In this document: positions 48,767 through 49,561 of the stretch, one piece after another
Position numbering within the stretch: the stretch's first letter is position 1
How the letters are laid out: every line of letters begins with the position of its first letter
DNA from: Escherichia phage CCU7
Length of the DNA stretch: 64,000 nucleotides
Reading direction: 5' to 3' (one strand)
Sequence record: PV806175.1
Notes under the pieces: model-generated
What the model saw: the letters and a program-made list of their open reading frames with translations, nothing else
Databases searched by the model: none
What the model was told of the DNA's origin: nothing
Translations under genes and position numbers: made by a program

Positions 48767-49072
48767 ATGAGTAAGATTATTGAAATTAAAGTACCAGAGT
48801 TTAATGATGCCAAATCCGCTTCAGATGCAATTTATAAACTTCTGAATCAAGCTGAACGCATCGAAGAAGAAGCAACAAAGATCGCAGACCAATATGCAGT
48901 ATCATTTTCTGTAGGTGATTATGGTAGCGGTCGTACTTATTATCCTAAGGGTGAAATCGTATCCCAGTGGATGAAAGATGAAATTGAAAATAATGGTGGC
49001 GATGTTAAGCGTGAAGGTAATGGTTACGTTATTACTGAAGGTGCTTGGATTTCCTCTTCTGCGCTGTGCTAA
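48767..49072 (+). CDS. small protein, paralog A of tandem triplet (C-terminal W-I-S-S-S-A-L-C)
   Basis: 101 aa; AAGGAA RBS; GTTTAC/TATAAT early promoter upstream; shares C-terminal motif with the next two ORFs. Confidence 0.55.
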   Translation: MSKIIEIKVPEFNDAKSASDAIYKLLNQAERIEEEATKIADQYAVSFSVGDYGSGRTYYPKGEIVSQWMKDEIENNGGDVKREGNGYVITEGAWISSSALC

Positions 49073-49081
49073 GGAACTATT

Positions 49082-49354
49082 ATGTCTAAAGAACAAACAG
49101 AACTGGCTGAAGCTGTAGCAAAAATCTATGCAGCTATTGAGGCTGCCAAAGAAATTGCTAATAAACAAAACACAACATTCAACTTGTATCCAGCTTATGG
49201 CATGGGTGGAACCTATCATTCACCAGGACATCTTAAAGCCGATCTTGAACGTTGTACAAAAAACGGTTATGCTGAATGGGCCGACGTTTACCAATACGAC
49301 TACAACTTGAGCCTTGAAGATGGTGGTTGGGTTGCATCTTCTCACACTTGTTAA
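49082..49354 (+). CDS. small protein, paralog B of tandem triplet (C-terminal W-V-A-S-S-H-T-C)
   Basis: 90 aa; AAGGAA RBS; conserved C-terminal G-W-(I/V)-x-S-S-x-x-C. Confidence 0.55.
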   Translation: MSKEQTELAEAVAKIYAAIEAAKEIANKQNTTFNLYPAYGMGGTYHSPGHLKADLERCTKNGYAEWADVYQYDYNLSLEDGGWVASSHTC

Positions 49355-49363
49355 GGAAATCAT

Positions 49364-49561
49364 ATGTCTCGTGAATTAGATTGTGCTGTACGTACGGCCG
49401 TAGCTGCTCTAGAAAACCTGTTCCAGATTGCAACCGAAGAGCGTGAAGAAGTTACATTGTGGATTGAAGATAATGCAGGTCTGAATCTCCAGGACGCAAT
49501 CTCGTTATCAAATAATAGTATTACTGTTCAAGGCTGGGTATCATCTAGTTATTCTTGCTAA
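49364..49561 (+). CDS. small protein, paralog C of tandem triplet (C-terminal W-V-S-S-S-Y-S-C)
   Basis: 65 aa; AAGGAA RBS; conserved C-terminal motif. Confidence 0.55.
   Translation: MSRELDCAVRTAVAALENLFQIATEEREEVTLWIEDNAGLNLQDAISLSNNSITVQGWVSSSYSC

Follow-up and report, generated by a model that had tools for sequence, protein, structure and literature searches.

The 64,000-nucleotide stretch of Escherichia phage CCU7 DNA analyzed here (sequence record PV806175.1; referred to as the window) contains, at positions 48767 to 49561, an array of three small tandem genes whose acidic products end in a common motif closed by a cysteine, the tail. The array genes lie 330 to 1120 nucleotides (nt) upstream of a gene, here called the partner, for a 318-amino-acid (aa) protein with two domains of unknown function, DUF7277 and DUF7275. 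This dedicated enzyme-like gene, which starts 330 nt downstream of the array and co-occurs with the tail in very distant phages, had been missed in the preliminary description of the locus. The principal open reading frames (ORFs) and motifs are given below, with the isoelectric point (pI) of each array protein.

48767 to 49072, plus strand: gene 1, ORF for a 101-aa acidic protein (pI 4.6) with a helix, a 'SFSVGDYGSGRTYYP' hairpin, and the tail AWISSSALC; phrog_899
49046 to 49069, plus strand: tail motif of gene 1, W-I-S-S-S-A-L-C
49082 to 49354, plus strand: gene 2, ORF for a 90-aa acidic protein (pI 5.0; 4.98) with a helix, a 'YGMGGTYH' hairpin, and the tail GWVASSHTC; phrog_899
49328 to 49351, plus strand: tail motif of gene 2, W-V-A-S-S-H-T-C
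49364 to 49561, plus strand: gene 3, ORF for a 65-aa acidic protein (pI 4.05) with a helix, strands, and the tail GWVSSSYSC; phrog_4882
49535 to 49558, plus strand: tail motif of gene 3, W-V-S-S-S-Y-S-C
49889 to 50845, plus strand: partner gene, 318-aa DUF7277 plus DUF7275 protein, assigned from Pfam profiles, synteny, and conservation

The three tandem ORFs of 101, 90, and 65 aa, ending in ...GAWISSSALC, ...GGWVASSHTC, and ...QGWVSSSYSC, are exactly as first described. The claim that each gene has its own AAGGAA ribosome-binding site also held, with AAGGAA found 5 to 8 nt ahead of each ATG; for genes 1 and 2, the stop codon lies within a TAAGGAA, and the gap from stop to next start is 9 nt. 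The cysteine had been placed at the last or third-to-last position; it is the last residue in all three proteins, and the second placement fell away. A search of all six frames of the window for W..SS..C-stop gave exactly three occurrences, all in the array, compared to an expectation of 0.03 per window from mononucleotide shuffles. Pairwise BLASTP comparisons gave E values of 1e-4, 5e-4, and 6e-4, each alignment covering the C termini, and by these alignments the three genes are weak but significant paralogs, as had been proposed. Genes 1 and 2 match the C-terminal part of the phrog_899 profile (E 2.6e-22 and 3.2e-18, respectively) and gene 3 matches phrog_4882 (E 1.1e-36), both of which are phage protein families without an assigned function. 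Genes 1 and 2 also have a common internal block, 'F..(x)..YG.G.TY', which went unmentioned earlier, and gene 3 is a minimal form without this Gly-rich YG.GG loop. The ratio of nonsynonymous to synonymous substitution rates (dN/dS) of the three genes was 0.02 to 0.13 against the orthologs of a close Mosigvirus and 0.21 to 0.26 against those of Dhakavirus (gene 1, 0.04 to 0.23; gene 2, 0.13 to 0.26; gene 3, 0.02 to 0.21). This range of 0.02 to 0.26 means that all three genes are protein coding and under purifying selection. That the likeness is due to chance, or that the ORFs are noncoding, can be given practically no weight. It might be argued from pairwise E values of merely 1e-4 to 6e-4, but it is refuted by the uniqueness of the motif to the array within the window, by 526 homolog clusters, by the dN/dS values, and by the conserved synteny described below.

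The array had been described as a locally duplicated and diversifying family. The genes are paralogs, but a recent local event is not what the orthologs indicate. Genes 1 and 2 each have a separate Dhakavirus ortholog at 61 to 64% identity, and the gene 3 type is found in Dhakavirus-like and Karamvirus phages, with 57 to 66% identity to Karamvirus and related members, whereas the identity between paralogs is only ∼28%. Since the genus-level orthologs are closer than the paralogs, the triplication is older than those genera. The copy number does vary across related phages, from 1 to 6, as the preliminary description had led one to look for. Natural frameshifted copies that have lost the tail were also seen, one of gene 1 in RB69 itself (P0002; RB69ORF139c, 71 aa) and one of gene 2 in vB_Eco_mar005P1 (P0018, 75 aa); judging from these sequences, single array copies seem dispensable in some isolates.

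The array proteins belong to a large family of Cys-tailed small proteins. An exhaustive profile search retrieved 526 cluster representatives (50% identity level) at E<=1e-3, nearly all of them 65 to 150 aa long and with the profile match reaching the last residue. Two long multi-stretch matches stood apart: P0109 was set aside for its length and short repeated matches, and P0173 is an unrelated repeat protein. Among the 147 divergent representatives retrieved, W(-7), S(-4), S/T(-3), and C(0) were invariant in 145, Thr being the sole exchange at position -3. The Cys was the final residue in 138 of the 147 and was followed by one extra residue in 7, and 93 had no other Cys; the median pI was 4.5. 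Invariance of these four positions while the bodies diverge makes the tail a functional signal rather than a chance resemblance, as first thought. The one feature constant throughout the superfamily, whose members are ∼65 to 160 aa in size, is this motif at the extreme C terminus, with the consensus W-x-[S/A/P]-S-[S/T]-x-x-C-COOH. Typically, an amphipathic helix (…AE.IADE…) at the N terminus is followed by an 'F.F…YGMGGTYYP' hairpin, a linker of acidic character that differs in length, and then the tail. When the last nine residues were removed from the tail proteins adjoining the partner, 101 of 142 still matched the family profile. The other 41, which fall into at least 13 sequence clusters and in some cases have N-terminal extensions of up to 100 aa, did not match it, and all of them retain the helix-strand-tail layout. 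Homologs of gene 1 are present in 389 GenBank phage records, and none of the family was found in 185,579 cellular species genomes; by these searches, the family is phage restricted. Against Pfam, the small proteins gave only subthreshold noise (Peptidase_S78_2 and E217_Gp32), against NCBIfam nothing, and a PDB sequence profile search returned only designed helical proteins at E>=0.01. The family thus stays as unrecognized as it was on first reading, with no Pfam family, no relative of solved fold, no literature, and only PHROGs without a function.

Some members depart from the consensus. A fourth class of small protein, absent from the window, is formed by WG01_129, PG7_138, phage 25 ORF058c, and PsgM04F CDS0209 (locus L002, positions 4807 to 5031; L003, 4294 to 4527; L004, 4246 to 4461; and L005, 3716 to 3934), which have an internal W-x-S-S-x-C-Y-G-E-G and a terminal W-x-x-S-S-C. 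In effect, a shortened tail motif is present twice in this variant class, once fused to the Gly-rich motif, and the juxtaposition suggests that the Gly-rich loop and the tail may form a single site in three dimensions. The tail motif is also repeated in tandem within P0080 and L106_946. In Acinetobacter phage Apostate, orf065 (locus L098, positions 1700 to 1876) lies between two intact tail genes and ends in ...NSNWSNSES-stop, without the terminal Cys; it may be a copy in decay or a variant that still functions.

From its C-terminal position, and from nothing else, the Cys could be taken for the attachment site of a lipid or an anchor, and the preliminary description had raised lipidation as one meaning of the tail. 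Lipidation did not survive, and we regard a lipidation, secretion, or sorting signal as very improbable. The three proteins (pI 4.0 to 5.0) are acidic and soluble looking, come from lytic phages, and have polar helices at their N termini (MSKIIEIKVPEF, MSKEQTELAEAV, and MSRELDCAVRTA), with no hydrophobic signal peptide or lipobox. Moreover, the Cys of bacterial lipoproteins is N terminal and that of CaaX proteins is at -4, whereas here it comes last, and the genomic partner carries a nucleotidyltransferase-like signature, not that of a lipid transferase. The tail may still be a processing signal or a metal or covalent attachment site, as the preliminary description also had it, and the downstream enzyme-like gene gives this more substance.

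The partner matches DUF7275 at E 8e-79 (264 bits, cutoff 27) and DUF7277 at E 2.9e-27 (95.6 bits), and eight syntenic homologs all match both profiles. Conservation was read from alignments of 8, 26, and 115 sequences, the last comprising 80 long and 35 short forms of the protein. All 115 sequences have G6, S7, D25, and D27, with 12 to 19 residues between the GS and the DxD, and an acidic residue on the following hairpin, E68, is present in 75 of the 80 long forms and absent from the short ones. This agrees with the pattern used as a test for Pol-beta enzymes, hG[GS]-x(9-20)-D-x-[DE] with a third acidic residue on the following strand. As a short-motif assignment, the N-terminal G-S…D-x-D…E is the classical Pol-beta nucleotidyltransferase (NTase) signature, and one GenBank record does label the partner 'putative nucleotidyltransferase.' The helical domain that follows has the invariants K125, H128, R165, H174, D193-H194-D195, H198, E240-E241, and E248-R249. 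H128, H194, D195, H198, E248, and R249 are invariant in the long and short forms together, with one long-form alignment gap at H194, D195, and H198. Invariant in the tail-associated long form is the motif K270-x-C272-T-S-I-T-S-G-W-F-R(-E), and the segment K-V-C-T-S-I-T-S-G-W-F-R-E-Y-A-W-E-N (window positions 50694 to 50747) is the most conserved of the enzyme. Its C-T-S-I-T-S-G-W resembles a reversed tail, W-x-S-S-S-x-x-C, and both segments are specific to the tail-associated subfamily; the reverse likeness is probably a coincidence. The partner family is wider than the tail family: it occurs in 734 GenBank phage records, actinophages and Vibrio phages included, and in cellular assemblies only on five contigs of metagenome-assembled genomes, which are phage-like in appearance and have tails present too.

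Several other identities for the partner were considered. RlaP (PF10127; NrdC.11 in T4) is an RNA-ligase-associated Pol-beta NTase that adds one or two nucleoside monophosphates to damaged RNA 3′ ends (PMC12776372). None of eight partner sequences matched PF10127 at E<=10, while the positive controls, T4 NrdC.11 and the neighbor in locus L012, did match it, and the hhalign probability was 0.2% against one RlaP and 0.1% against an alignment of 41 RlaP sequences. In addition, both genes coexist in the same genomes, and the identity with RlaP was rejected. The window itself has a genuine RlaP or T4 NrdC.11-type gene at 62554 to 63540 on the plus strand (E 1.7e-169 to the RlaP profile), ∼12 kb downstream of the module, and other module-bearing phages encode one as well. 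T4 does not have the module, and its nrdC.3 (308 aa) was rejected as a partner homolog. A reading of H128...H194-D195...H198 as an HD phosphohydrolase is speculative and found no profile support, and a weak HisJ/PHP match (16 bits against a cutoff of 90) was dismissed.

The tail genes and the partner were found together from both directions. First, in Dhakavirus WG01, Karamvirus PG7, Aeromonas phage 25, and Pseudomonas phage PsgM04F, a partner homolog of 300 to 320 aa comes after the small genes, although in these four distant phages the locus adjoins nrdD or DprA instead of e. Second, starting from the small proteins in metagenomic contigs, the partner gene was directly downstream in six of seven distant family members, including a 371-kb jumbo-phage contig and contigs with RecA/DnaB neighbors; the seventh overlaps the stop of an upstream PF10127 RlaP gene. 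Third, in a census starting from the enzyme, 80 viral loci were fetched with the partner profile and searched for tail ORFs, defined as same-strand ORFs of <200 aa that end in W..S[ST]..C and lie no more than 2.5 kb upstream. Such ORFs, in 1 to 6 copies, were present in 75 of the 80. The five exceptions were three loci with a variant tail, one cut by the contig end, and one, L034, with a putative tRNA cluster in place of the tail genes. None of the 80 loci had a tail ORF downstream of the partner or on the opposite strand, and only 6 of 4,494 other ORFs in the loci had a tail, all of them farther upstream on the same strand. The order of the module is kept across genomic neighborhoods as different as e/tRNA, nrdD, DprA, RecA/DnaB, and Rnl1/PNKP. 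Finally, the subfamilies of the enzyme differ sharply. The short DUF7275 subfamily, to which the distant actinophage and Vibrio phage members belong, consists of ∼250-aa proteins with a full DUF7275 and a reduced N domain, and its 35 viral loci had neither a family match nor a tail ORF, whether of the main or the variant type, within 4 kb (0/35), compared to 75/80 for the long form (Fisher P ∼1e-24); the two groups are clades. Cys272 is present in 80/80 long forms and in 0/35 short forms, which have I, A, or V there, and E68, H174, and the GWFRE[YF]AWEN segment are long-form specific in the same way. All three window genes have the traits of the Cys-tailed superfamily, namely, the tail, an acidic composition, and a position upstream of a long-form DUF7277/DUF7275 gene. 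On this comparative sequence evidence, the tail proteins and the enzyme are very probably coupled functionally as a module.

The explanation that we find most plausible overall, and hold tentatively, is that the small proteins are clients of the partner enzyme, with the tail as the recognized element. The module would consist of one DUF7277-DUF7275 enzyme and 1 to 6 interchangeable small acidic client proteins. The enzyme would recognize the tail and take it into its active-site cleft, where the NTase-type center, possibly with Cys272, would covalently modify or charge it at the Ser hydroxyls and/or the terminal Cys thiol, and the diversified bodies would afterward bring it, thus modified, to different targets. 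The small proteins would in this way act much as a set of small acidic carrier proteins does for a transferase. That they are substrates or carriers, with covalent modification or charging of the tail hydroxyls and/or thiol, is possible but still short of probable. It is favored because the invariant residues are nucleophiles among which only a Ser-to-Thr exchange is tolerated, because the tail Cys is accompanied by an invariant Cys in the enzyme, and because the layout of one enzyme with many clients, and the clients' small size and acidity, recall carrier proteins. A chemistry new to protein tails, either O-nucleotidylylation of the tail Ser or a thiol or persulfide relay through the terminal Cys, using the NTase-type center and Cys272, is a more speculative proposal and would, on present indications, be rather unlikely. 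Much the same can be said of the idea that a new carrier-protein or posttranslational modification system feeds RNA or tRNA repair or modification, or disables host defenses, in T4-like infection, which we consider conceivable but doubtful.

Several observations weigh against the substrate or carrier reading or the NTase assignment on which it leans. The partner had no match to any NTase family or PDB chain among Pfam, NCBIfam, and PDB profiles, and a single-sequence AlphaFold2 (AF2) model of it had a predicted local distance difference test score (pLDDT) of 36, which is unusable for the fold. The short subfamily has only ∼55 residues ahead of DUF7275 and no E68, which weakens the case for an NTase core. 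L034, from a CC31-like Karamvirus, is the only clear long-form locus without tails, having none within 4 kb, and the contrast between long and short forms may represent a single evolutionary event, since the two groups are clades. The gene 1 tail lies within the fold of its AF2 model (strand at 93 to 96 and short helix at 97 to 100, pLDDT ∼87) and is not a free peptide, so the W and Ser could be mainly structural. Lastly, the distance from the Ser pair to the Cys is not constant across the variant class (SS-x-x-C, SS-x-C, and SS-C), and this, together with the 7 of 147 proteins that have a residue after the Cys, disfavors chemistries that depend on a fixed ring size or on a free Cys carboxylate.

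Another reading is a maturation like that of ribosomally synthesized and posttranslationally modified peptides (RiPPs), in which the tail Ser would be converted to dehydroalanine and the terminal Cys would add to it, giving a lanthionine or aminovinylcysteine (AviCys) type of ring and a cyclized C terminus or a released product, with the partner as the modifying enzyme. A C-terminal S-x-x-C is the pattern of the AviCys/lanthionine ring in epidermin-type lantibiotics, and the tail matches it; the invariant residues are Ser, Ser/Thr, and Cys, and multiple small genes stand in tandem upstream of one enzyme. Nevertheless, we judge this route quite improbable. The Ser-Cys spacing of the variant class is anywhere between 0 and 2 residues, the extra residue after the Cys in 7 of 147 members precludes oxidative decarboxylation, and the proteins are predicted to be folded. 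The conservation is inverted as well: RiPPs have a conserved recognition part and a variable core, the opposite of the invariant 'core' and varied bodies of the tail proteins. No Pfam domain of the LanB, LanM, LanC, or LanD type and no YcaO or radical-SAM domain was present in the window neighbors or among the called genes of related contigs.

In the main rival reading, the small proteins could instead be noncovalent adaptors or regulators whose tail docks into a basic RNA or nucleoside triphosphate cleft of the partner without any covalent tail chemistry. They might be specificity subunits directing the enzyme to RNA or protein targets, or RNA-mimicking inhibitors or timers of an antitoxin-like kind. 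The synteny and the contrast between subfamilies speak for adaptors as much as for modified clients. NTases of the GLD-2 or Trf4 type use partner proteins, and the order of a small gene upstream and an enzyme downstream is like that of the antitoxin-toxin pairs of NTase toxins. The small proteins are strongly acidic (median pI 4.5), while the partner has the invariant basic residues K125, R129, K139, R148, R165, K270, and R281, and the tail is integrated in a confidently predicted fold in the gene 1 model (pLDDT 89). A specificity factor would also make sense given the loose nucleotide and RNA specificity of RlaP (PMC12776372). On the other hand, invariant nucleophiles (Ser, Ser/Thr, and Cys) are seen more often at reactive or ligand sites than in docking motifs, acidic proteins are ill suited to bind RNA as adaptors, as many as six inhibitors per enzyme are hard to rationalize, and the joint appearance of an enzyme Cys and a tail Cys suggests thiol chemistry or a shared metal. 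Considering both sides, adaptors or regulators of either kind are a serious alternative but an unlikely one.

As to the setting, the module probably acts in RNA or tRNA end metabolism and counterdefense early in infection, a placement drawn from gene neighborhoods. This is because the array lies in an early-gene region near tRNA genes, because elsewhere the enzyme is near tRNA clusters, an RNA ligase, or Rnl1 plus PNKP, and because the 3′ end of an RlaP gene overlaps with a tail gene in one contig. For example, Rnl1 and PNKP genes are ∼4 to 6.5 kb upstream of the partner in the 371-kb jumbo contig (L006, positions 689 to 3478), an RNA ligase gene is ∼1.3 kb upstream in a Streptomyces phage (L095, 872 to 1531), and a tRNA cluster is nearby in a Gordonia phage (L096, 4850 to 6439). 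Most of the other loci examined had no RNA ligase or RNA repair genes near the partner. In L034, a 131-aa ORF precedes the partner, and the ∼1 kb ahead of that ORF (positions 2500 to 3560) has no ORF of >=50 aa and contains repeated sequences that, read by eye, are like tRNA T arms and acceptors.

In a further reading, the tail proteins and the enzyme would be neighbors in a pathway and never touch. The tail would then target a conserved host factor, such as the active site or metal center of a ribonuclease or anticodon nuclease, with the bodies in an arms race; the enzyme would repair or modify RNA damaged by the same host systems, and the synteny would reflect coregulation in a counterdefense island. 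Consistent with this are the place of the array in the hyperplastic early-gene region of T4-like phages, the copy number variation, natural truncations, and fast divergence of the bodies, the restriction of the family to phages, and the nearness of RNA repair genes in several lineages, with the genuine RlaP 12 kb away in the window. However, gene order and strand are strict in very distant phages although the module moves within the genome, and the presence of the tail correlates perfectly with Cys272, the GWFRE helix, E68, and H174, which is more than coregulation usually yields. Mere neighborhood is therefore an improbable explanation.

The window comes from an RB69-like phage of the T4 type (Mosigvirus). 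Positions 47000 to 51500 are 99.3% identical to Shigella phage Shf125875 and 96 to 98% identical to many Mosigvirus genomes, in whose records no gene of the array stretch carries a name other than 'hypothetical protein.' The array is in a variable early-gene region with tRNA genes on one side (tRNA-Met and tRNA-Arg at 43772 to 43928) and nudE/e on the other. The remaining features around it are as follows.

48680 to 48708, plus strand: promoter-like site TTTACG-17-TATAAT ahead of gene 1, consensus match only
49567 to 49595, plus strand: promoter-like site TTTACA-17-TATAGT, TG extended, directly 3′ of gene 3, consensus match only
49612 to 49863, plus strand: 83-aa ORF (phrog_3723) between the array and the partner
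50859 to 50887: sigma-70-like site in the gap 3′ of the partner, consensus match only

The region has no more promoter-like sites in total than shuffled sequence would lead one to expect, and no terminator-like site was found on the plus strand between gene 3 and the partner. Taken as sequence matches, the sigma-70-like sites and the missing terminator suggest early transcription units with read-through. The 83-aa ORF is 48% identical to WG01_126, and its conservation is limited to Mosigvirus and Dhakavirus; its position is occupied in other lineages by unrelated genes or by no gene, and it is probably not core to the module. Just upstream of the array, at 48247 to 48669 on the plus strand, the window has one 140-aa ORF where ATK47, JK36, and other Mosigviruses have two genes, an e.4-like one (124 aa) and an e.3-like one (119 aa), as compared at L001, positions 4299 to 5011, and L013, 1799 to 2511. 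Megablast placed ∼240 to 510 additional bases at this site in related genomes, and the ORF looks like a deletion or fusion variant. A 'sulfurtransferase' label in phage JK36 was discarded as a lead since it belongs to the upstream e.4-like membrane protein and not to the Cys-tailed family.

T4-like phages are among the best-studied viruses, and yet this module, which RB69 and jumbo phages also carry, has no name. A search of the available literature found no mention of DUF7277 or DUF7275, of the RB69 ORFs, or of a Cys-tailed protein paired with an NTase. An eight-residue invariant C-terminal signature, with enzyme residues that co-occur with it, reads as the trace of a reaction dedicated to recognition or modification. 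If that reaction were confirmed, the module would be a new enzyme-client system in phage biology, possibly with a new protein modification, and two DUFs would acquire a function. It could also reveal a further layer of phage RNA repair or counterdefense beside RlaP, Rnl1, and PNKP, and it might yield a compact, genetically encodable C-terminal tag with its cognate enzyme.

The module could be assigned to no known kind of system; for each family considered, at least one of the defining features tested was lacking, and its apparent newness rests on this absence of matches. RiPP arrays, such as NHLP/Nif11-type precursors and AviCys lantibiotics, resemble it in that diversified small genes stand in tandem ahead of the gene for a modifying enzyme, that Ser, Thr, and Cys are the conserved reactive residues, and that an S-x-x-C is C terminal, but the module differs in its lack of RiPP enzyme domains (LanB/M/KC/L, LanC, and LanD Pfam domains were absent from the window neighbors and from the called genes of related contigs), its inverted conservation, its folded bodies, and its variable Ser-Cys spacing. 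Bacterial lipoproteins and CaaX proteins differ from the tail proteins, which have no N-terminal lipobox signal and no Cys at -4. The NTase toxin-antitoxin systems (MenA-MenT, AbiEi-AbiEii, and MntA-HepT) share a small acidic protein upstream of a ∼300-aa protein with an NTase signature and a helical C domain, and MntA modifies its partner protein by nucleotidylylation. However, the partner has no DUF1814/AbiEii or MNT match (Pfam, E<=10), there would be up to six 'antitoxin' paralogs, and the module is found only in lytic phages.

Other systems resemble the module in its proposed workings. RlaP was predicted earlier to act with RNA ligases in phages (PMC7824862). Like the partner, it is phage borne, is ∼300 to 340 aa long, has an N-terminal hGS...DxD signature and a C-terminal helical domain, and in some genomes has RNA ligase, PNKP, or tRNA genes nearby, and one member of the tail family overlaps the 3′ end of an RlaP gene. 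The partner differs in having neither a PF10127 match nor similarity by comparison of hidden Markov model profiles (0.1%), and neither PMC12776372 nor PMC7824862 mentions a small Cys-tailed partner for RlaP. The sulfur carriers and relays (ThiS/MoaD/TtuB with E1-like adenylyltransferases; TusA, TusBCD, and TusE) are analogous in that small proteins function through their extreme C terminus or a single Cys, the adenylating enzyme has a catalytic Cys, small paralogous subunits are encoded in tandem (tusBCD), and there is a connection to tRNA modification. The tail, however, closes with Cys and not with Gly-Gly, no beta-grasp or DsrE-like fold was detected in the tail proteins, and no profile pointed to an E1-like or PP-loop-like partner. 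Acyl carrier proteins with their phosphopantetheinyl transferase, and PII with GlnD, offer a further likeness, purely by analogy, in that one transferase serves several small acidic clients with an invariant hydroxyl residue; GlnD is itself a Pol-beta NTase that nucleotidylylates a small protein, PII.

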